Made by a program: the position numbers and the translations under genes. This document shows, in pieces, positions 19,147 through 50,163 of a stretch of 64,000 bases of DNA. Source of the DNA: Candidatus Bathyarchaeota archaeon (GTDB lineage: Archaea; Thermoproteota; Bathyarchaeia; Bathyarchaeales; Bathycorpusculaceae); contig CAWGZR010000005.1 in assembly GCA_963827165.1 (NCBI GenBank), forward strand, positions 1 through 64,000, written 5' to 3'. A model generated the notes under the pieces. The model was not told the origin of the DNA, ran no database searches, and saw nothing but the letters and a program-made list of their open reading frames with translations. The first letter of the stretch is position 1. Each line of letters starts with the position of its first letter.

Positions 19147-19893
19147 TTAGCTTAAAAACGGGTTATAATAGGTTATTTTAGAGTACTTGCTTTTTTTGTA
19201 AACAAGATATCCCAATATTGCGCCGACAACGGCACCAAAAATCGGGTTAAGAATCCAAAACGCAAAAGTCCAAAAGGTAGGATAACTTAATGACGTTCTA
19301 ACTCGCCCAAAAATCTCCACAAGTCCCACCATAATTAGCCCGCCTCCAAAAAAGCCGAATGGCACTCCTATTGTAGCTCCGAGGAAAACATAGGAAATCT
19401 CGGCACCAACCATCTGGCTTTTTGGAGACCATTTAGCTCTTACTTCCCGCATCTTATAAGAAGTGTAGGCTAAAATGATGGCGAGAAATAAACCGATGAT
19501 ACCTATAAGCAAATTTCCAAAACTAACTAATCCAAACGAGTAAAGTATGGAAAAAACAAGGGCTGCACCGACCCCAAGCAGCGCTACTCTAAACCAGAAT
19601 TGACTTATCACTAGCATTTCACTCTCTGCTCGGCTTACGCCTTCTGGAAATTCGACTAAAAGCTTAGCGGCAATAAGACCCTTATCAGTCAATGAATACT
19701 TGTTATCACTGGTCTTTGACAAAAGACCGTTAAGAACTTTCAAGTGATAGTTCATCTTTCCGGTACTGCTGATCCCTAATTCCTTCATTAGCTCCGTGTA
19801 GCCAATGTCACCTCTTTCGTGAAGCAAAAGGATAGTTCTTTGTCTTGTGCTGTCTTTCAAGATCTTAAACAGCCGAGCTAATTCTGAAGTCAT
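19147..19893 (-). CDS. wHTH + 4-TM membrane regulator inserted as a moron in the tail operon
   Basis: LFKILKDSTRQRTILLL...YTELMKELGISSTGKMNYHLKVL plus four hydrophobic helices; own palindrome GACTAA-N4-TTAGTC at 19932-19947. Confidence 0.85.
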   Translation of the reverse strand: MTSELARLFKILKDSTRQRTILLLHERGDIGYTELMKELGISSTGKMNYHLKVLNGLLSKTSDNKYSLTDKGLIAAKLLVEFPEGVSRAESEMLVISQFWFRVALLGVGAALVFSILYSFGLVSFGNLLIGIIGLFLAIILAYTSYKMREVRAKWSPKSQMVGAEISYVFLGATIGVPFGFFGGGLIMVGLVEIFGRVRTSLSYPTFWTFAFWILNPIFGAVVGAILGYLVYKKSKYSKITYYNPFLS

Positions 19894-20534: not shown

Positions 20535-20601
20535 ATCACCTCATTAATAATTTCTAATTTTTGGATAAGAAAATTGAAAAAACAAAGAGAAGGAAAAGGC
20601 A

Positions 20602-22019: not shown

Positions 22020-22124
22020 CTAATTTTTTCTCCGCCTTCTGCCGAAATAATAAAGAATCCAACCTACCACGAAAAGCGCTATAGCAACGGGAATAAGCAG
22101 AAGCCTCAGTTTTCGCTTTGCCAT
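22020..22124 (-). CDS. 34-aa single-TM viral protein
   Basis: MAKRKLRLLLIPVAIALFVVGWILYYFGRRRRKN*; fills the gap between adaptor and terminator almost exactly. Confidence 0.65.
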   Translation of the reverse strand: MAKRKLRLLLIPVAIALFVVGWILYYFGRRRRKN

Positions 22125-22126
22125 TC

Positions 22127-22588
22127 CTAACGCCACCGTTCTTTGTAATGTGGGACTTCATTTCCTAGGCGGGCTTGAGCACTTACTGCTCCAGTTGAAA
22201 GATTCGCCATATTTCGAGTAAAACTGTCTTGGAAGCTTTGCACTGCGCTTTCAAATGAGAATTTTCCAATGGTGCCTTTAGTTACAAACAAGTCGCCGAG
22301 CTTGTAATCTGCCGCGCCCAAAAGCATTCCGCCACTTGCCGCAACTAAAACGGCCATGCATGCAAGGTCAAGTGCGGCTAACTGCGCGAACGGGTAACGC
22401 GGATCCGTCGATGTTACACTGGGCGCGAAGCTGCCAATGTAAGTGTTCGCGTGATCAACGTATGCTTGGACGCTGTTGCTTGAAACAGAAAGCCCGTAAA
22501 CAAGATAATTGCTGTTTCCATCAGGTCCCGTCGCATTTAGAAAGCCGATAACTTCCTCTAGCGAAGTGAAAGCTGGATAAGTTGACAT
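22127..22588 (-). CDS. head-tail adaptor protein
   Basis: Directly after MCP; FTSLEEV N-terminus, ADYKLGDLFV. Confidence 0.7.
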   Translation of the reverse strand: MSTYPAFTSLEEVIGFLNATGPDGNSNYLVYGLSVSSNSVQAYVDHANTYIGSFAPSVTSTDPRYPFAQLAALDLACMAVLVAASGGMLLGAADYKLGDLFVTKGTIGKFSFESAVQSFQDSFTRNMANLSTGAVSAQARLGNEVPHYKERWR

Positions 22589-22618
22589 GAAAAGTCTCCG
22601 TGAATTTGTTAATTTGAA

Positions 22619-22653
22619 GCCGGCTTTACGGTTCCAGACTTAAAAAACTGGAG
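22619..22653 (-). promoter_or_regulatory. double-hairpin element, copy B (downstream of MCP)
   Basis: CTCCAGTTTTTTAAGTCTGGAACCGTAAAGCCGGC. Confidence 0.6.
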
Positions 22654-22668
22654 CAAACAAATAATCGT

Positions 22669-23568
22669 TTAACTGGTTGCATAGCCCGTAGATTTGCATA
22701 TACAGAAGCCGTTTGCGACGTAGGGTGTCTTGCGGTAGCTTGTGAACGGGATAATTTTTCGTAGCCGTTTCTGGATGTCGATGTCGGTTGTGATTTCTTG
22801 TTTGGTTACCATGAAACCCATGGGTGCGTAGTTGTTGTTTGGGTTTTGGCCGTCGCTGATGCCGTAAACTGTGCCAGCTGGAACAAGATTGCTGACGAGC
22901 AGTGTCCATATGCCGAGTTTTTGTTCAACTTCATTGGTGAGAGGGTTGGTGACTTCGCGGAATAAGTTGGGGTAAGGCAAGTTACGCAGCGATTCTTCTT
23001 GGATCGGGTTGATTGCAATGTATTTCATTATGAAGTTGTGCTGTTTTATGAGTCGGTTCATTTTGTTTAGGTCTTCAAGGCCTACGCCGCCGCTGACAGT
23101 TATTGTTGAGCCTGTGACGCTGATTGTGTTTCCCGTGCCTGCAAAAGAGTTGCCGTTCGCTGCCCCCGCGCCATCTATAGCGGTCCAACTGTCTAGCTCT
23201 ATTTGATACATCGTGCGGAAGGCCAGACGCATCATTTGAGTGTCGACCACTCCGAGTTCGAAGTCAGTGATCATTTCTATTGGGATTTCAACCTCTTCGC
23301 CGTAAGTATCCGGGGTGATGCTCACACTTGTTAATGGGGTGAAGTCTAATACTGCGGGTGCTGAGATGCCTTTGCGTTGAATGCCGATTGCGACGTTGCC
23401 TGCTTCTTTCACATAGGTTCGAGTGCGTCCTTTGATAATTGGGTCTGGAACAAAGAGCTTGGCAAATATCATGGCGTTGGTTGCCATCTGCAGGATTTTT
23501 TGGTGTAGCTCTGGATATTGAATGGCTGGGCTATCATCCATTGTTACTTGATCTGGTGCAAAACTCAT
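22669..23568 (-). CDS. major capsid protein (HK97 fold)
   Basis: 299 aa; TYGEEVEIPIEMITD, YIAINPIQ, LLVSNLVPAGTVY patterns; gene order. Confidence 0.85.
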   Translation of the reverse strand: MSFAPDQVTMDDSPAIQYPELHQKILQMATNAMIFAKLFVPDPIIKGRTRTYVKEAGNVAIGIQRKGISAPAVLDFTPLTSVSITPDTYGEEVEIPIEMITDFELGVVDTQMMRLAFRTMYQIELDSWTAIDGAGAANGNSFAGTGNTISVTGSTITVSGGVGLEDLNKMNRLIKQHNFIMKYIAINPIQEESLRNLPYPNLFREVTNPLTNEVEQKLGIWTLLVSNLVPAGTVYGISDGQNPNNNYAPMGFMVTKQEITTDIDIQKRLRKIIPFTSYRKTPYVANGFCICKSTGYATS

Positions 23569-23603
23569 TTCTTGATTTCTCCTTTATTTTTTATTTAGAA
23601 TTT

Positions 23604-23638
23604 CTCGACTTGACGAGTCCAAACTTGAAAGATTGGAG
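23604..23638 (-). promoter_or_regulatory. double-hairpin element, copy A (upstream of MCP)
   Basis: CTCCAATCTTTCAAGTTTGGACTCGTCAAGTCGAG. Confidence 0.6.
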
Positions 23639-23639
23639 T

Positions 23640-24008
23640 TTAGGGAATGACTATTGCTTGTCCGCCGTTAGATGCGCCTGTGTCGCATAGGCAGTGTTTG
23701 GTTGTTGGCGTGTTGTTGGTTACTCCTACTCCGCCTGCAGCTGAGATTACTAAGTCGCCTGGGTTGATTGTGCCGCTGGCTGTGATTCTGGCTTTTACTT
23801 TGCCAGTCATTACTGTGCAGATTTTGCCTGCTGCTGCGCCGACTTTAACGATGCCGACCCATTCTTGTGCTCCTGTGGTTGGGGAAACCGTGCCGGGTCC
23901 GCTAATGTAGACGAACTGTCCTGCTGTGACGCCGCCTGTGCCTGCGATAAACGAGAGATCGGTTGAAGACGGCTGTTGTACGAGAGGGCCTGAATTTTCG
24001 AATGACAT
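23640..24008 (-). CDS. capsid decoration/cement protein (DUF2190-like)
   Basis: Gly/Ala-rich, ASGTINPGDLVISAAGG; adjacent to MCP. Confidence 0.75.
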   Translation of the reverse strand: MSFENSGPLVQQPSSTDLSFIAGTGGVTAGQFVYISGPGTVSPTTGAQEWVGIVKVGAAAGKICTVMTGKVKARITASGTINPGDLVISAAGGVGVTNNTPTTKHCLCDTGASNGGQAIVIP

Positions 24009-24009
24009 T

Positions 24010-25092
24010 TTACTGCATGCCTCCTTGTGTTACCTGGGCGTCAAAGGTTCGTTTCTTTTGTGCGGCTGCTGCAAGCTCTTTGAAGTAGGGTGGCACTGCC
24101 ACCATTCCTGGCTGAGCCTTCTGTGGTTCCAAGTGTTCGTTTAGGATTCCTGCGACTCCTTTCCCGGGCGTACGTTGCTTTAGTGCTAGTTTTATGGTTT
24201 CGTCGACTTTAGCTGCGATCGCGGCGGTTTCCAGTTTGACTGCTTCTCTTGCGGCTTCGACTGCTTTTGTTACTGCTTCGGCTGAGGCTTTGTTGCATGC
24301 TTCTGATAGGTTGTTTACGTGCTTTTCCATCATTGCCTTTATGGCTTCTGCATCTAAGGGTTGATTTGTTGACAATTTTCTCTCCTCCGAATTTTTCTTT
24401 TCGTTTTTTTGGTTAGCTCCCTTGTGGGAGTGTTCCTGGGAATTACAACTTAAACAACTAAGGGTCAAAGCGCTTGCACATAGCCCACATGGAACTTTTT
24501 CCTGTGCCAATAGCGCTTTTCTGATGACTTCTTGTTGGTCCACTTTCATGGCAGCCGCAAAGCCAACGGGCTTAAACTTGGCGTGCTCATATGCACCTAT
24601 TGAGACAATGCTCAACTCGACAAGGCGTGGATGGCGCATGATTTCCCAAGCACCCCGGCAAATGTGCACCAAATTCATTTGGTCGTCTCTTGAGCGTGAT
24701 CCACATAAGCTGCAGTAAGCTTCTCCAAGAATTCGTGGGCTAACGCTGTTAACGTATTCTCGCTCGATTTTCGCGAGCAGTTCCTCATCGCCGCTCACTT
24801 CACCTTCAAAAGGTACAACGATTCTACCGTCAACCGAGGCCTGAGGCAAGTGCAAAATGTTGATGACGCCTTTGATGTCTTCCACTCGGTCGCCATGATC
24901 AACACGTATCTGAGCGTTTTGGCTGTTAGTCACAAAATACGGCAGTTCTTCAGCGGGGACCTGCCAACTATTCGCGTTAACTGTGTCGTCGATGGCTGTG
25001 CCTTGAATGAGCAGGACTTTGCCGTCAGGGCTTCTCTTGAAAGTGACGGGCACATTGTAGTCTAGATGAATGTTGGGTTTAGAAGCGCTCAT
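24010..25092 (-). CDS. prohead protease fused to scaffold
   Basis: IRVDH, VNSVSP, CSLCG..HIC, VELSIVSIGAYEHAKF; Ala/Lys/Glu-rich helical C-terminus. Confidence 0.85.
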   Translation of the reverse strand: MSASKPNIHLDYNVPVTFKRSPDGKVLLIQGTAIDDTVNANSWQVPAEELPYFVTNSQNAQIRVDHGDRVEDIKGVINILHLPQASVDGRIVVPFEGEVSGDEELLAKIEREYVNSVSPRILGEAYCSLCGSRSRDDQMNLVHICRGAWEIMRHPRLVELSIVSIGAYEHAKFKPVGFAAAMKVDQQEVIRKALLAQEKVPCGLCASALTLSCLSCNSQEHSHKGANQKNEKKNSEERKLSTNQPLDAEAIKAMMEKHVNNLSEACNKASAEAVTKAVEAAREAVKLETAAIAAKVDETIKLALKQRTPGKGVAGILNEHLEPQKAQPGMVAVPPYFKELAAAAQKKRTFDAQVTQGGMQ

Positions 25093-25108: not shown

Positions 25109-25429
25109 TTACCAGTAAACGTCATGGTCACGAACTACAAGGCAAACACAATTTGGATGCAGATTCACCGCAAAAGTGTCCTCATCAAGCCATTCTCCAT
25201 AAGGAAACATATCCTTCAACTCGTCCGGATCCTTCAGCTCGTAGACATCAGTATTATGGTTCTGGCAGTTCTGGCAAAGATTAGGGCTTGGTTTTAGGCC
25301 TTCAGTTACATAGCGCCAAACAGTGTAGCGGATTGCGGGATTAACGACGGCTGCCTTGAAAGCCTTAAACGCAAGAAAAGCGTTGACTGCATCCTGCATG
25401 TCATTGTCTTGGAATTTCTGAGATAACAT
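25109..25429 (-). CDS. truncated minor head protein (Mu gpF/SPP1 gp7-like C-terminal domain)
   Basis: CQNC...LHPNCVC motif after portal. Confidence 0.75.
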   Translation of the reverse strand: MLSQKFQDNDMQDAVNAFLAFKAFKAAVVNPAIRYTVWRYVTEGLKPSPNLCQNCQNHNTDVYELKDPDELKDMFPYGEWLDEDTFAVNLHPNCVCLVVRDHDVYW

Positions 25430-26873
25430 AGCTTTTCCCGTTCATGCTGATCTGTCTTTGAGAAGCCTTTAGTTGTGGAGAAAGCTGCGATGCACCGCTT
25501 TTGCTGACGGCGTCGTCGGGCATTGCTTGGTCGTAACTTTGACGCATAGTTGCCAGGTTACCCCAGACTTCTTCAGGCAACCCAAGTTTTGCTCGGGCTT
25601 CTAGATCTCCGGTTAGGCCTGCTTGGAAGAGTGCAATTTGTTGGTCAACCAAAACGTCTGCTGCGGGCTCCCAGATTGGTCGCCACTTTATCTTTGGAAT
25701 CTTATCCGAGGTTATGAGCGATCCCGGAAAGTCACCTTGCAGGATAGCTGGGAACAACTCCGTTTCGTAAGTGTACTTTATGTGTTCCTGTCGCATGCGA
25801 AGGCGGGTGACGAATTCCTGCATAACTATGTCAGCGGTTGATCTGTTTGCGTTTTCAATTTCTCCTAAAAACAACTTGGGAACGCCTAACTGTGCGTTAC
25901 GTTGAGTTAGCAGGTAGTTTAGCCACCATTCAACCCGCAAGCCGCGAGTCATGCTGTCAATAGGTATTGGAGTTACGTCGTGTTTGAACGCGAGGTCAGT
26001 TCCTTGCTGGCGTTCAGCCATGCCATCGATAAATGCCTGCAGTTTAGTGTCAGACCACTCGGCCTTTTCTGTCCCACATTGATACGCAAGGATGGGTTTG
26101 GTGTAAATCTTCATGATGGTTGCCATGTCATGCTGGAAATCATCGGTAAGCGCCTGAATCAGCAAGGTGCTTCTTAGCAGGCTAACGCCATAAGCGCTGT
26201 TGTACCTGCCCGAACCTTGATTGTGCAAAGTACGCAAGATGTCTTGGGGCTCAAAAATTGCAGGAGGCACAGAGAGCAACTGAATGTAGCCGAAAACGTT
26301 CATGTAAGCGTCTCGGCGAATCCGGACATAAAGAGGATCCAGAGGCTTTAGCCACTCGACCCGCTGGTTATCTTCATCTCGGCAAAGCTCAGTGACGCTA
26401 AAGCCGTTAACCAAAGCATTGTTTTCTTGAATACGGGCAACAGATGGAACGTTATGGGAATCCAGCCACTCGCTCAAATAATCGTTGAATGTAGAGTTGC
26501 CGCCTTCCAGCTCAAGCCAATTGCTAACAGTCAAGTTAACGCGGACGTCCACTGCTGCAGCAATGTATGGGTTGTACTCGTAGAGGGCTTGCAGTTTCGG
26601 CAGATCATCAACCGGTGTGATTCCCCAAATTCTATCATACAAGCTGCTGTAAGGCGGAGTGACAAAGCCTATTCCAGCACTTTTCAAAGTGTACCTACTC
26701 AGGTACTCTTGCAGAACCGCATCCCGAGTGGACCTAAATGGGATCTCTTGCTCAATTTGTTGCTTCGCCGTATCTTCTGCCACATTGCGCATGGGATTTG
26801 GCAACGAGTTATTTCGTGGGGCAGGGAGGATTTTGCTTGTGACCTGTCCAAAAGCGGCTCTGAAGTTTACCAT
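25401..26873 (-). CDS. portal protein
   Basis: LKPLDP, AYGVSLL, LGVPKLFLG..NANRSTA motifs; follows TerL. Confidence 0.9.
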   Translation of the reverse strand: MVNFRAAFGQVTSKILPAPRNNSLPNPMRNVAEDTAKQQIEQEIPFRSTRDAVLQEYLSRYTLKSAGIGFVTPPYSSLYDRIWGITPVDDLPKLQALYEYNPYIAAAVDVRVNLTVSNWLELEGGNSTFNDYLSEWLDSHNVPSVARIQENNALVNGFSVTELCRDEDNQRVEWLKPLDPLYVRIRRDAYMNVFGYIQLLSVPPAIFEPQDILRTLHNQGSGRYNSAYGVSLLRSTLLIQALTDDFQHDMATIMKIYTKPILAYQCGTEKAEWSDTKLQAFIDGMAERQQGTDLAFKHDVTPIPIDSMTRGLRVEWWLNYLLTQRNAQLGVPKLFLGEIENANRSTADIVMQEFVTRLRMRQEHIKYTYETELFPAILQGDFPGSLITSDKIPKIKWRPIWEPAADVLVDQQIALFQAGLTGDLEARAKLGLPEEVWGNLATMRQSYDQAMPDDAVSKSGASQLSPQLKASQRQISMNGKSYVISEIPRQ

Positions 26874-26888
26874 TTACTGAGTACATCC

Positions 26889-28127
26889 TTAATGTCTGTT
26901 CGGGAATGCAATTCCGACGCCTGATGATGGTGAGGGTGAGCGTTTTAGTTGCCAAGCGGCTAATGCGAGAGCGATAACTGCGTCGTCGTGGTAGCCTTCA
27001 GGTGCTCCATATTGGACGTTGCCGCTTCGAGTGGTTTTGTAGCCGTACAGCTTAAGCTCGTTAATCAAAACAGGAATTGCTGGAATTGTGAGCTGGTGGT
27101 TTTCAATCATTATGCTTAGGTTTTCTATGAGGTCTTTTTTTGTGGCATTAGTAAATTTGTAGCCGCCCACATGCACTTTCTCTCGGCAAAGCTCATCTTC
27201 AATTGGGTCACCGACTCCGGTGCTGTCAATTAGCAAACGGGCATCATAGTTCTGGGCCAGTTGAACGATACGTTTTCTTTGAAACACCCAATCCAACTCA
27301 TTGAACCTGTCAAAGGCAACCAAGTGACCGTCAATATCTAAGACTATTAGAACTGTGAAATCTTCGAGTTTTGCAAGGTCGCCGCCCATGACGTACTTCT
27401 TTTTTGGTTGAGGAAGTTCAAAGTCGCCTTCAACAATGCGATCCACTCCTCGGAAGACACTGCCGACATCTTCTAAGAATTGTGCCAGGACCTCTTGGCG
27501 ATAAGCCAATTCAGGCATATCTCGGGCAAACGAGGCGATTTCGGCTGGATCCAAATATGGGTTGCTTGCACTTGGGAAGCTCCAGCTCTTGTAATCTGGC
27601 TGTTTAGGGTCTTGCCCGCGAGTCCATAGCTGGAAATACCAGTTGTGCCCTCTCGGTGTGCCTGTGAAAAAGGCGATGCCTTTCTCATCCATCAAAGCAG
27701 GCCTAAGAGCAAGTGTCCAGGCTTCCTCTGCAATTTGTGCGCCCTCGTCTACCCAAAGAACCTTTACGCCTTGGCTACGAAGCGAATCGGGGTTGTCGGC
27801 GCTCTTGAACCAAATATGCCGATTGCCCGACAGTATGACGTGACGGTCGGCTCGGTGGATTTCCTCAATTAGCTCACTTGGGCAGTAGTTGAAGAATTCG
27901 CTCCATTGCCGCTGGGTATGCCAATATGTGGGTGCAACCGCGAAGCCGACTATGCCTGTTTTTTCTCTGCCTTTGCCTTGCTGCCACATTTGCCTTATGA
28001 ATTCGTTGGCGCCGCAGACGGTTTTGCCCCAGCGCCTTCCACAGTTGAGCACTCGGAACCTTGCGGGGTGGAAGTGGAAGCTAAGTTGTCCTGGGTGGGC
28101 TTTGTATCGGATGGGGTATATTGTCGT
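26889..28127 (-). CDS. terL: terminase large subunit; frame extends 25 codons upstream of the ORF call to an ACG
   Basis: Walker A CGRRWGKT, LWVDEGA, GTPRG, nuclease GGDLA / IDSTGVG / HDDAVIALA; upstream HPGQ adenine-binding motif in frame. Confidence 0.95.
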   Translation of the reverse strand, partial: TTIYPIRYKAHPGQLSFHFHPARFRVLNCGRRWGKTVCGANEFIRQMWQQGKGREKTGIVGFAVAPTYWHTQRQWSEFFNYCPSELIEEIHRADRHVILSGNRHIWFKSADNPDSLRSQGVKVLWVDEGAQIAEEAWTLALRPALMDEKGIAFFTGTPRGHNWYFQLWTRGQDPKQPDYKSWSFPSASNPYLDPAEIASFARDMPELAYRQEVLAQFLEDVGSVFRGVDRIVEGDFELPQPKKKYVMGGDLAKLEDFTVLIVLDIDGHLVAFDRFNELDWVFQRKRIVQLAQNYDARLLIDSTGVGDPIEDELCREKVHVGGYKFTNATKKDLIENLSIMIENHQLTIPAIPVLINELKLYGYKTTRSGNVQYGAPEGYHDDAVIALALAAWQLKRSPSPSSGVGIAFPNRH

Positions 28128-28540: not shown

Positions 28541-29014
28541 TCACTTAACTTTTTTTGGAACATATTTTAAAGAGACGGTTAAGCGTCCTCTACTGTTTGA
28601 GCGGACGAGTTCCCGGTTTATTCTTGTGTCGCCTCTGCCATGGCTGCCATGCCCAACACGCTTGATGATCCAGTTACCAAGGTCTCCACGGACCAGCTGT
28701 GGGTTACTCGTAATTAGATAGAACGGCAGTCTGGTCTGGGATGTGTAGAGCTCTGCGATAAAGTTCAGCAGACGCTTACCAACACCTATCCCTTGATAGT
28801 CAGGGAGAACCACAAGACGGCTAACCCGATAATAATTTGCTTTCATACGCACGTGTGCCACAGCGATAAAAGCAATGGGTTTTTGGTTGTACATCGCTGC
28901 GTAGCATCTGACTCCGGCGCCGAGTTTGCTGTTTAGATAATGATATTGCCGAAACATCTGCCACATGGAACCGCCGCACCGATAAACTTGGAGCTCAACG
29001 GGCGGCCTGCTTCT
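28541..29014 (-). CDS. GNAT (Mom-like) acetyltransferase, entered by a -1 shift from the ATPase frame
   Basis: WQMFRQYHYL; RVSRLVVLPDYQGIGVG acetyl-CoA motif; upstream RPPVELQVYRC in the same frame after the A7 run. Confidence 0.85.
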   Translation of the reverse strand, partial: RSRPPVELQVYRCGGSMWQMFRQYHYLNSKLGAGVRCYAAMYNQKPIAFIAVAHVRMKANYYRVSRLVVLPDYQGIGVGKRLLNFIAELYTSQTRLPFYLITSNPQLVRGDLGNWIIKRVGHGSHGRGDTRINRELVRSNSRGRLTVSLKYVPKKVK

Positions 29015-29617
29015 TTTTTTCGGCTAAACTCCATTGTGTCCGTGCAGAAAACCCAATCGGGATCAAGCCAATCGATAACATCATAGTGGCACGTAACGGC
29101 AATGAATTTCTTGTTTGTTCTTCGGACGGCTTTGCTTATGGCATAGGCACTAACTTTAGCAATCTCACGGTCTACGACGCTTGTAAACTCGTCAAATACG
29201 ATTTGTGGCTGTTCATAGACTGAGAGCTCTTGCGATGTCTACTCGCATTTTCTCTCCTTGACTGAGGGCATCGTAGCTTTTGAGCCAATCAGGGGGTGAA
29301 GCAAAACCAACGCTGCAGAGGTTCTTTGTTATCTCGTTTACCTGTTGTCCTTCAGGAAAATCGTCGAGAATAGATTCATGGGTATAGGCAAAATCTTTGA
29401 TGTAGCTGTCAGCGAAGAGAGTTTTGGCTATGCTCGTTTTACCAGTCCCGCTACGACCTACTATGACGCCGATCTGCCAAGTATTATCCTCAATCGGAAT
29501 TTGTCCAGTGAAGTGCTTCTCCATCTTGCAATCAACGAGTGTGAAGCTGCCGATGACTGATTGCGCTCGAAAACTGTTTGGCTTATTCCAGGTTCTCATA
29601 AAGTCAAAAGACGGCAC
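28933..29617 (-). CDS. ABC-family ATPase interrupted by a +1 break at CTA TGA A (29213-29215)
   Basis: Walker A GRSGTGKT and signature LSQGE in frame 1; Walker B IVFDEFTSVVDR and H-loop VTCH in the +1 frame. Confidence 0.85.
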
Positions 29618-48513: not shown

Positions 48514-50163
48514 TTATTCTTCGCCTTGGGGACCGCCCATTCCGCCTGGGCCGCCTGCTCCGCCTTTGGGCGATTTAGCTGTTATCACGTCGTCGATGCG
48601 CAGTATCATGGCTGCTGATTCCGCTGCTGATTTGATAGCTTGTTCTTTAACAACGATTGGCTCGATGACTCCGTTTGCGATGCTGTCTTGCAATTTGCCT
48701 GTGAAGACATTGATGCCAAAGTTTTTGCCGTCCGCTGTGTCGTGTTTTTGGCGAAGTTCAACGAGGATGTCTATGGGTTCTAAACCTGCGTTTTCGGCGA
48801 GTGTGCGTGGGATGACTTCAACGGCGTCTGCAAATGCTTCAACGGCTAGTTGTTCTCGTCCGCCGACTTTGGTCGCGTATTTGCGTAGTTCCTTAGCGAT
48901 TTCGACTTCAACTGCGCCGCCGCCTGGAACAATCTTATTGTTTTCAATAACGTCAGAAACCACTGATAACGAGTCAATCATGGCTCTTTCTGCTTCGTCA
49001 ACGAGGCGTTCAAGCCCTGCGCGGATAAGTATTGCAACGCTATGCGCATCTTTGCATTTTTCGACGAAGATCATTTTGTCGTCGCCGATTTTGCGTTCTG
49101 TAACTGATCCTGCGAAGCCAAGATCTGCAGCTTTAAGGTCGTCTAGATCGCTGATTATGCGTGCACCTGTTGCTCTTGAGAGTTTCTCCATGTCGGATTC
49201 TTTTACGCGTCGCGCCGCCATTATGCCGACTTTGGATAGGAAATGCTGAACCATGTCGTCGATGCCTTTCTGGCAGAACACCACGTCTGCGCCTGAAGCC
49301 TTAACTTTGGTAACCATCTTCTGCAGCATGTCGTCTTCCTGATTTAGGAAAGCCTTCATCTGAGACGGGTCTTTTATTCGGATTTCCGCGCTTATCTCGG
49401 TTTTCTCGATTTCAAGCGCTGCATCCAGCAAAGCGATCTTTGCGTTTTCCTTACTCTTAGGCATTCCAGGGTTTACGACTTCTTTGTCGATGATTATGCC
49501 TTGGATAAGTTGGGTTTCAAGAAGGCTTTTACCTGTTTTCTTTATGAGTTGGATATTATCGATGTCCGCAATGGTTTTGTCTCCCCGTTGCTCAGCAATC
49601 TGTTTGACGGCTTCGATGCTTATTTCCGCCAAATGCTCGCGTGCGCTGCCGACGGCCTTGCTGCTCATGCTTGTTAAGGAAACCTTGAGTAGGGTGGCTT
49701 TGTCGTTGACGTCCAGTGGAGTGGCAAGTTTGTTTATGACTTCGATAGCTTTCTGGCTGGCTTTTCGGTAGCCGCTGACCAATATTATTGGGTGGATGTT
49801 TTGGTCAAGGAGTTCCTCAGCTCTTTTGAGGAGTTCACTTGCAAGAACCACTGCAGTTGTTGTTCCGTCGCCGACCATGTCGTCTTGGGTTTTTGCGATT
49901 TCAACCATCATTTTGGCTGCGGGGTGTTCAACGTCGATTTCCTTGAGGATTGCGGCGCCGTCGTTTGTTATTGTTATGTCTCCCAGGCTGTCGATGAGCA
50001 TTTTATCCATGCCTCTTGGGCCAAGGGTGGTTTTGAGCACTTCGCCTATGACGCGTGCCGCCATGATGTTGTTTCTTTGGGCTTCTTTGCCCCTGCTTCT
50101 TTGTGTTCCTTCTTTTAGAATGAGGACTGGCTGTCCTGAATTGGTTGTTGTTAAATACGCCAT
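48514..50163 (-). CDS. ths: thermosome (group II chaperonin) subunit
   Basis: [26 protein letters not shown] tail. Confidence 0.98.

Follow-up and report, generated by a model that had tools for sequence, protein, structure and literature searches.

A conserved double-hairpin RNA element anchored to the major capsid gene in tailed viruses of Bathyarchaeia

A 35-nt double-hairpin element, here called type A, flanks the gene of the major capsid protein (MCP) in a tailed provirus of Candidatus Bathyarchaeota, and comparison with its relatives shows that it is real and conserved, that its structure is strand-specific, that its loops are under selection and that it is anchored to the MCP cistron. 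The analysed DNA, hereafter the window, is the whole stretch of 64,000 nt (positions 1 to 64,000 of contig CAWGZR010000005.1, assembly GCA_963827165.1), in which the late genes of the provirus all lie on the minus strand. Across the family, a 5-bp stem closes a 10-nt loop UCUUUUAAGU, and a single nt parts its return arm from the CCG-UAAAGC-CGG that follows. We define type A by a 5-bp covarying stem with a 9-10-nt loop UCUUUUAAG(U), 1 nt, a second hairpin of 3-4 bp with the loop UNAAGY and an adjoining MCP gene, all of which are found in both window copies. The element probably helps to decide the fate of the capsid message.

Both copies are read on the minus strand. The upstream ("up") copy (23604-23638) begins 1-2 nt past the stop codon of a small head-protein gene, and the downstream ("dn") copy (22619-22653) follows the MCP gene. 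With the covariance model R1 they score 57.1 bits (E 1.9e-19) and 67 bits (E 2.2e-23), respectively, both copies belonging to its seed alignment by construction. Counted on the minus strand, 25 of the 35 positions are identical, and the gaps to the following ATG are 35 nt for the up copy (MCP ATG, 23568) and 30 nt for the dn copy (ATG 22588), which bears out the preliminary description of two 35-nt copies lying about 35 and 30 nt before gene starts. In the up copy, stem 1 (TCCAA/TTGGA; 23637-23633 with 23622-23618) closes a 10-nt loop (23632-23623) and is followed by hairpin 2, CTCG-TCAAGT-CGAG (23617-23614 with 23607-23604, loop 23613-23608). In the dn copy, stem 1 (TCCAG/CTGGA; 22652-22648 with 22637-22633) closes a 10-nt loop (22647-22638), and hairpin 2 is CCG-TAAAGC-CGG (22631-22629 with 22622-22620, loop 22628-22623). 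The compensatory changes that had been claimed for both stems are therefore present as described, and the claimed loop ending, AAG(T/C), not only holds but widens to UNAAGY across the family.

The flanks of the two copies are also organized. A T-rich tract ending in TTGC (22654-22668, minus strand) separates the MCP stop codon from the dn copy, while an A/T-rich box and a Shine-Dalgarno GGAG lie between each copy and the next ATG (23569-23603 with GGAG at 23582-23579 for the up copy; 22589-22618 with GGAG at 22599-22596 for the dn copy; both on the minus strand). The similarity between the copies extends 3' past the hairpins into this box. Two 21-nt degenerate half-motifs, with at most 3 mismatches allowed, each match only the two copies in the 64 kb, with expected counts of 0.01 and 0.03 and two or more matches in 0/100 shuffles; consequently, the copies are not a product of chance. 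A search of the window with R1 at E<=1 likewise returned exactly the up and dn copies.

The evidence for the structure comes from relatives, numbered here with an L, on viral, metagenome and reference-genome contigs. In the alignment A3 (26 rows) 99.6% of the cells are paired and all five outer pairs of stem 1 have changed on both sides, whereas 0/500 shuffles reached as high and sliding the partner by one column left at most 63.8% paired. Alignment A4, with 36 distinct rows, two of them doubtful, gave 98.9% against at most 62.5% when slid, and RNAalifold arrived de novo at the same two-hairpin structure. Once the doubtful rows L141 and L167 are dropped, there are 17 distinct arm pairs of stem 1, 16 of them fully paired and one with a terminal A.G mismatch. 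On the sense strand these stems hold six G.U and no A.C besides the one A.G, and this restriction of the wobbles to G.U points to a single-stranded sense strand, i.e., mRNA. The dn copy of L013 (MCP 90% identical) has a wholly different stem 1 that is still fully paired. In hairpin 2 one pair covaries (C-G to U-A), and the up copy of the window gains a fourth pair.

The loops behave in the opposite manner, being near-invariant and ending in UNAAGY. Loop 1 is UCUUUUAAGU in 19/29 cores, with five one-step variants, and loop 2 is UAAAGC in 21/29, the rest carrying UAAAGU, UCAAGU or UUAAGC. The 5' arm of stem 1 is always pyrimidine-rich and, in dn copies, extends a T/C-rich tract ending in GC; such a tract precedes most dn copies, with TTGC in 17 of the 29 listed cores. 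Taken together, the alignments show two adjacent short hairpins, 1 nt apart, with a stem 1 that is free to change provided that pairing is kept. The covarying stems of the preliminary description thus stand on strong covariation (A3, A4 and RNAalifold), with wobbles that favor the sense strand; the covariance model that it proposed has become R1, which finds further members, and the covariation in A3 exceeds that of all 500 shuffles.

Other pairings were considered and set aside. Long-range pairing of the T-rich with the A-rich flank could be drawn for the window, L005 and L013 but not for L139, L116 or L022. Kissing of the loops through CUUU and AAAG is contradicted by loop-2 position 34, where A changes to C or U uncompensated in loop 1, and an intramolecular kiss is made unlikely by the 1-nt linker. 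Mimicry of an anticodon arm, suggested by the CUUUUAA held in the loop, was rejected for want of a regular closing pair and for a loop of 9-10 nt.

Exact-pattern scans anchored on both loops, with the stem left free, returned 34 stretches in viral contigs, at least 126 in metagenome contigs and 62 in reference genomes. The first alignment had been made with a pairing filter, and membership was then re-judged by criteria that ignore the stem. Where an MCP or small-head-protein homologue ends at most 150 nt upstream (28 unique contexts), 27 have 5/5 stem-1 pairs and one has 4/5. Where at least 300 nt of upstream flank hold no such gene (52 contexts), the counts for one to five pairs are 13, 20, 12, 5 and 2, a random-looking spread; 26 further contexts were left unclassified, their upstream flank being too short. 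Titles of the records gave a similar division, with 5/5 pairs in 20 of the 21 unique contexts from records named Bathyarchaeota or Bathyarchaeia (4/5 in the other) and in 1/39 contexts from other records, that one being a 1.7-kb contig with a 99% MCP upstream. Homologues, which the preliminary description had proposed to seek, are found in many viral, metagenome and Bathyarchaeia genome contigs, and both the MCP relatives and the element-bearing records are Bathyarchaeota/Bathyarchaeia genome bins and contigs from peat, bog and soil.

Members missed by the pattern were recovered by R1, namely the 9-nt loop variant (L072, L076, L079 and contig 13 of the source genome), L073 and the dn copy of L120. 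Among 17 close viral loci, 15 extend far enough to show the dn copy and 13 of these have it, while the up copy likewise occurs in 13/15; L011 (MCP 93%) and L015 (MCP 76%) have neither type-A copy. In L118 (1488-1536) and L287, which have the same sequence, an orphan type-A copy with the stem TTCCA/TGGGA has no recognizable MCP before it and is followed by ~190 non-coding nt and then by a radical-SAM/B12-binding gene in convergent orientation; it may mark the edge of a decayed provirus. Chance matches to the loop pattern also came from an unrelated repeated family of at least 80 nt (L095, L100, L101, L107, L110, L113, L115, L127, L130, L146 and others), which consists of a T run and then conserved sequence, with no stem-1 pairing.

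At the genome scale, R1 gave three strong matches in the 3.13-Mb source genome, two directly behind an MCP gene and one in front, and no credible match in 150 other genomes of the class. Two weak matches in other genomes of the class (E ~1e-5) were dismissed, with no MCP nearby and the motif absent on reading. Short-word BLAST of both copies against the source genome yielded chance words of 11-15 nt only, among the 40 matches listed, all for the up copy, and where loop or hairpin-2 strings recur in that genome the surroundings are coding or unrelated. In the provirus of the window, five further late gaps of sufficient length for folding were not unusually structured (z > -1). Rfam 15 (4227 models) at gathering score detected two tRNAs only in the whole window, and the element region of L220 had 0 matches at E<=1 with permissive filters. 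Accordingly, the earlier proposal of an undescribed cis RNA motif tied to the MCP cistron is supported by homologues, covariation, wobbles and the lack of an Rfam family.

Three known classes of element were rejected in the course of this comparison. A bacterial-type intrinsic terminator, in which a U run comes straight after a G+C-rich hairpin, does not agree with a T-rich tract that precedes the hairpins and A-rich sequence after them; a U-run follows hairpin 2 only in L073 (T6 right after). A dispersed repeat, like repetitive extragenic palindromic (REP) sequences or miniature inverted-repeat transposable elements, is at odds with just three strong matches in 3.13 Mb, all at an MCP gene. 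With regard to clustered regularly interspaced short palindromic repeats (CRISPR), a crude k-mer scan yielded a single array (contig 4, 272137-273605; CRISPR-like, with ~21 repeats), whose repeat is unlike the element. For an archaeal promoter, which would conserve sequence instead of pairing and have its TATA-like box ~25 nt before the transcript start, the signs are mixed: loop 1 and the following box are A/T-rich, yet the arms of loop 1 covary and G.U occurs on one strand only; a promoter starting its transcript at the conserved GC is unlikely, since the window has no A/T-rich box 23-30 nt upstream.

The anchoring to the MCP gene is seen best in the dn copy, which lies 10-40 nt after the MCP stop codon, including in viruses whose MCP is 29-45% identical to that of the window. 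The gene after it is often a homologue of the one called "adaptor" here; in L019, L069/L173 and L076 this homologue stands ~620-980 nt further on, with other genes between, and the element stays behind the MCP gene. The up copy occurs only with an MCP at least ~88% identical to that of the window, whereas identities of the preceding gene range from 45 to 100%. Since the dn copy keeps to the 3' side of the MCP gene and the up copy tracks MCP identity, both copies go with the MCP. Judged from this distribution, the ancestral and widespread site is the one behind the MCP stop codon and the front copy belongs to the subclade of the window alone, so that the placement on both sides of the capsid gene, as first described, is right for that subclade and wrong as a general rule. 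Moreover, one version of the up copy differs from a dn-type copy (L190) by a single loop base, so that the up copy seems to have been duplicated or transferred later into the space that separates the stop codon from the A/T box.

Mosaic joints fall at the same place. A second provirus of the same genome (locus L222; contig 13, 364-1819) carries the third strong R1 match behind its MCP gene, and its MCP is 41% identical to that of the window, against 89% for its "adaptor" and 87.5% for the gene after that, the joint lying at the element. L079 and L076 share the MCP and the element and diverge directly after it, whereas L063 has the MCP type of the window but the gap and the "adaptor" type of L068. 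The "adaptor" gene of contig 13, like that of L320, has ACG instead of ATG as its start codon. An extension of the MCP by read-through or frameshift was ruled out: the gap does not preserve the reading frame, the spacer of L005 being 4 nt shorter than that of the window.

In sister viruses, the slot of type A behind the MCP gene, after the same T-rich tract ending in GC, holds a different element of ~60 nt, type B, with a 5-bp outer stem, an inner 5-bp hairpin and a 6-bp pseudoknot in which the loop of the inner hairpin pairs with sequence 4 nt past the outer stem. Nine distinct sequences have 99.3% of their cells paired, against at most 40% in slid controls, and 9/16 pairs change on both sides, three of them within the pseudoknot. 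The sites are L063:3415-3490, L068:3413-3488, L070:1117-1192, L071:3413-3488, L074:2358-2433, L080:1127-1202, L174:232-307 (minus strand), L206:45-120 and L271:37-112 (minus strand); in L174/L206 and L286 type B comes directly after type A. Three type-B loci had no Rfam match at E<=1 with permissive filters, and a loose signature detected none in the source genome. Since pseudoknots are a feature of RNA, the covarying one in type B adds weight to the view that the whole slot acts as RNA.

Both elements resemble modules placed after a terminator-like tract and ahead of the A/T box that serves the next gene, since a late gap of the window (20535-20601, minus strand), with a long T/C-rich tract, an A/T box and the Shine-Dalgarno sequence GAGGTGAT, and the MCP gap of L066 show the plain layout without them. 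In late gaps of more distant relatives, at 4330-4432 of L076 and after the MCP stop in L088 and L089, there are plain G+C-rich hairpins with 8-9 bp stems and a T-rich loop, a different solution at comparable places.

Assembled contigs from the RNA libraries of four runs (two studies) were compared over 22100-24100. In one study, contigs at 23531-23700 and 23537-23708 span the up copy and link the small head-protein gene with the MCP gene, DNA carry-over being possible; at least some nucleic acid in these libraries carries the up copy inside a longer molecule. The interval 22597-22731, which includes the dn copy, is uncovered, a gap that is uninformative in assembled contigs.

The interpretation that we favor, tentatively, is that type A may be a conserved cis-acting RNA of the sense strand whose loops are bound by a conserved factor and which marks the boundary or sets the stability of the MCP message. 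The two like loops would serve as docking sites of a putative dimeric or two-domain RNA-binding factor. A conserved host protein would be a likelier partner than a viral one, which would evolve fast, given that the loops do not change among viruses with capsid proteins at 29-45% identity. The preliminary description had suggested processing or stabilization of the MCP cistron, or a viral protein bound to set capsid stoichiometry, as possible functions; the near-invariant loops, if anything, favor a host factor over a viral protein. Once bound, the element would be a boundary mark on the late transcript, protecting the MCP message against 3'-to-5' decay or defining where processing or termination takes place; alternatively, it would insulate the MCP message from the following genes. 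The dosage of MCP could in this manner be uncoupled from that of the head-completion and tail genes that follow, and in the subclade of the window both ends of the MCP cistron would be marked.

Some observations weigh against this interpretation. Stem 1 has 5 bp and hairpin 2 has 3-4 bp, at about -8 to -9 kcal/mol, and such short stems are no stabler than shuffles: single-sequence folds give -9.0 (up) and -7.9 (dn) kcal/mol with z of -1.66 and -0.49, not significantly beyond shuffled sequences. Stems so weak would by themselves be a poor block to an exonuclease. When the full gap or longer flanks are included, the minimum-energy fold takes other pairings; single-sequence energetics neither prove nor disprove the structure, the case for which stands on comparative data and not on thermodynamics. 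A T-rich tract is the usual archaeal terminator signal, and here it lies before the dn copy, not after, so that transcripts ending there would be without the element. In the clade of the window the element lies 30-36 nt before a start codon, which fits a role in the 5' untranslated region equally well. Furthermore, there is no candidate binding protein, gene co-occurrence not having been screened, and close relatives do without type A, with type B in L011/L063 (MCP 93%) and neither type in L015/L066 (MCP 76%).

That distance to the start codon, with GGAG in between, is what commends a translational operator or 5'-untranslated-region element for the next cistron, in which a bound protein or an alternative fold would set access to the Shine-Dalgarno sequence. 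In full-gap folds of the window the CUCC of the stem-1 5' arm pairs with the GGAG in both copies, and the element travels with the downstream module in two mosaics (contig 13, with MCP at 41% and "adaptor" at 89%, and L063, which shares type B and the "adaptor" type with L068). Nevertheless, we consider such an operator unlikely: the next gene is not constant, the "adaptor" homologue being up to 620-980 nt further on, and the next predicted start, as based on open reading frames, is found at 16-139 nt. The CUCC arm is not conserved either, being CCATA in L079 and L222 despite a nearly identical Shine-Dalgarno region, and sequestration by that arm was rejected on this ground. A nascent-RNA signal similar to the nut and put sites of phages would instead reprogram the polymerase or a termination factor beyond the T-rich tract, and later T-tracts would then be read through or would stop transcription. 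It has a matching architecture, since two stem-loops, in alignment columns 9-28 and 30-41 with a single column between, lie in cis in a viral late operon in a layout like that of HK022 put; the element is also directly preceded by a T/C-rich tract, such tracts being found behind other late genes as well (e.g., 20535-20601), and invariant loops suit a very conserved partner such as the host polymerase. The element is, however, about half the size of put and is sited in mid-operon rather than after a promoter, and RNA-based antitermination is not known from archaea; we regard such a signal as quite improbable.

A role at the level of DNA, as part of a promoter, an activator or operator site, a single-stranded DNA hairpin or a linker for recombination of the capsid module, draws on the T/A-rich, TATA-like loop 1, on the A/T box that follows the element, centered ~25 nt before each ATG, and on the mosaic breakpoints at the element (window/contig 13, L079/L076 and L063/L068). 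Binding to a duplex would nonetheless conserve sequence, whereas here 17 stem variants keep pairing while the loops are fixed; mismatches are G.T on the sense strand only (6 vs. 0), although a strand-specific single-stranded DNA hairpin is still compatible with this. In addition, ahead of the conserved GC the window has no TATA-like box at the customary spacing, and type B, in the same slot, has a covarying pseudoknot, an RNA feature. We give a DNA role little probability. Least probable is a short selfish or neutral insert, of no use to the virus, that moves from one viral gap to another. Its appearance and disappearance between close relatives (L063 and L066 vs. the window clade) and the clean ~35-nt insertion before the MCP gene in one subclade, between the stop codon and the A/T box, are what such an insertion would leave, but the element is found only beside the MCP gene: the window has two copies, the 3.1-Mb genome has three, and 150 other genomes of the class have none. 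Its substitutions concentrate at paired stem positions and spare the loops, which shows selection and not drift.

A bolder interpretation, which we regard as speculative and rather improbable, is that types A and B are counterparts in archaeal viruses of nut/put sites or of exonuclease-blocking viral RNAs, a "punctuation" deciding late read-through or decay. The marks would be read by host machinery, e.g., RNA polymerase, the termination factor aCPSF1/FttA or the exosome, and, standing right after the T-rich tract, would choose the polymerases or transcripts that continue into the head-completion and tail genes.

With respect to the genes around the element, the late operon on the minus strand comprises the large terminase (26889-28052), the portal (25401-26873), a 360-aa gene without an assigned role between portal and small head-protein genes, the small head-protein gene (23640-24008), the MCP gene (22669-23568), the "adaptor" gene (22127-22588) and, after it, an HK97 gp10-like and a tape-measure-like gene. 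The 299-aa protein was taken as the MCP because a weak match to PF25209 (E 3.4e-4, under the cut-off) is joined by PF25209 in its homologues (44.2 bits against a cut-off of 27 in L116) and by an agreeing gene order, after the portal and small head-protein genes. The 122-aa small head protein, whose stop codon abuts the up copy, is scaffold- or decoration-like: it matches phrog_673 (head scaffolding, E 2.3e-8), and its 40% identical homologue in L116 matches Phage_cement_2. The 153-aa protein encoded after the dn copy is an "adaptor" by position only, with no family at E<=1 in profile searches.

Elsewhere in the window, a thermosome gene occupies 48514-50163 and marks the DNA as archaeal. Two adjacent open reading frames on the minus strand (28541-28966 and 29213-29617) match different parts of one PHROG family, phrog_11143, the 134-aa product covering positions 11-126 and the 141-aa product positions 214-351 of 357; one bears a P-loop/ABC-like signature and the other a GNAT signature, and the pair looks like a split or interrupted gene. 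Amid the provirus tail genes, 19147-19893 (minus strand) encodes a 248-aa protein with the archaeal domain DUF7347, which we take to be of the winged-helix type; this protein may be a regulator.

Bathyarchaeia and their viruses are uncultured, and next to nothing has been learned of how the tailed viruses of archaea control the widely differing quantities of their structural proteins. The present analysis yields a compact, covariation-supported RNA element with a calibrated model, R1, as well as a second, pseudoknotted one, both anchored to the MCP gene. In this context, types A and B offer a handle on post-transcriptional or transcriptional control in these viruses, a bait for an RNA-binding factor and a marker of module boundaries where capsid genes swap. 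If the partner were a host protein or the polymerase, the element would report on host RNA biology beyond culture, and, were the punctuation idea true, an archaeal virus would for the first time have been shown to govern late-operon read-through or decay by means of RNA.

Candidate structured RNAs have been mined from IMG/VR, and five of these candidates are typically upstream of a major capsid protein family (PMC10690425; Fremin & Kyrpides 2023). Those candidates, like type A, are covariation-supported cis motifs in viral intergenic regions, but the capsid-linked ones lie upstream of the gene whereas type A is ancestrally downstream; the supplement tables had 0 matches for the motif strings and for six metagenome ids, a result that does not extend to the probable alignment archives (PMC10690425). 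The main text of a study on Bathyarchaeia viruses mentions no hairpin, stem-loop, non-coding or intergenic element (PMC10541130). A full-text literature search returned no description of such an element. Apparently, type A is a new structured-RNA motif of a generally known kind, a cis element of a viral late operon, with none described in these viruses in the literature searched.

The likenesses to put, nut, REP, RNase III sites, coat operators, thrS and guanidine-II are analogies of design, not of membership. Guanidine-II (mini-ykkC) likewise has two small hairpins with the same conserved loop motif, but these are tetraloops, whereas type A has loops of 10 and 6 nt ending in UNAAGY and a 1-nt linker; the guanidine-II model in the Rfam library searched had no match at gathering score or at E<=1. 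REP hairpins in Escherichia coli operons and RNase III sites in the T7 late region similarly border the most-needed gene and are thought to set relative dosage within a polycistron. They act by stem stability or through a duplex nuclease and their loops are free, whereas the stems of type A are weak and its loops conserved; RNase III, to our knowledge, is generally lacking in archaea. The coat-protein operators of single-stranded RNA phages and the thrS operator, whose two similar hairpins are read by a dimer, share with type A a covarying stem and a conserved loop, which in these operators is read by a protein, but they overlap or abut their ribosome binding site, whereas type A belongs to the gene before it and is separated from the next predicted start by 16-139 nt. 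HK022 put consists of two stem-loops with one unpaired nucleotide between, and lambda boxB has an A-rich loop read by a protein; as type A would be, put and nut are short stem-loops in a nascent viral transcript that act in cis, but they belong to bacterial phages, stand just after early promoters and share no sequence likeness with type A, put being about twice as long.

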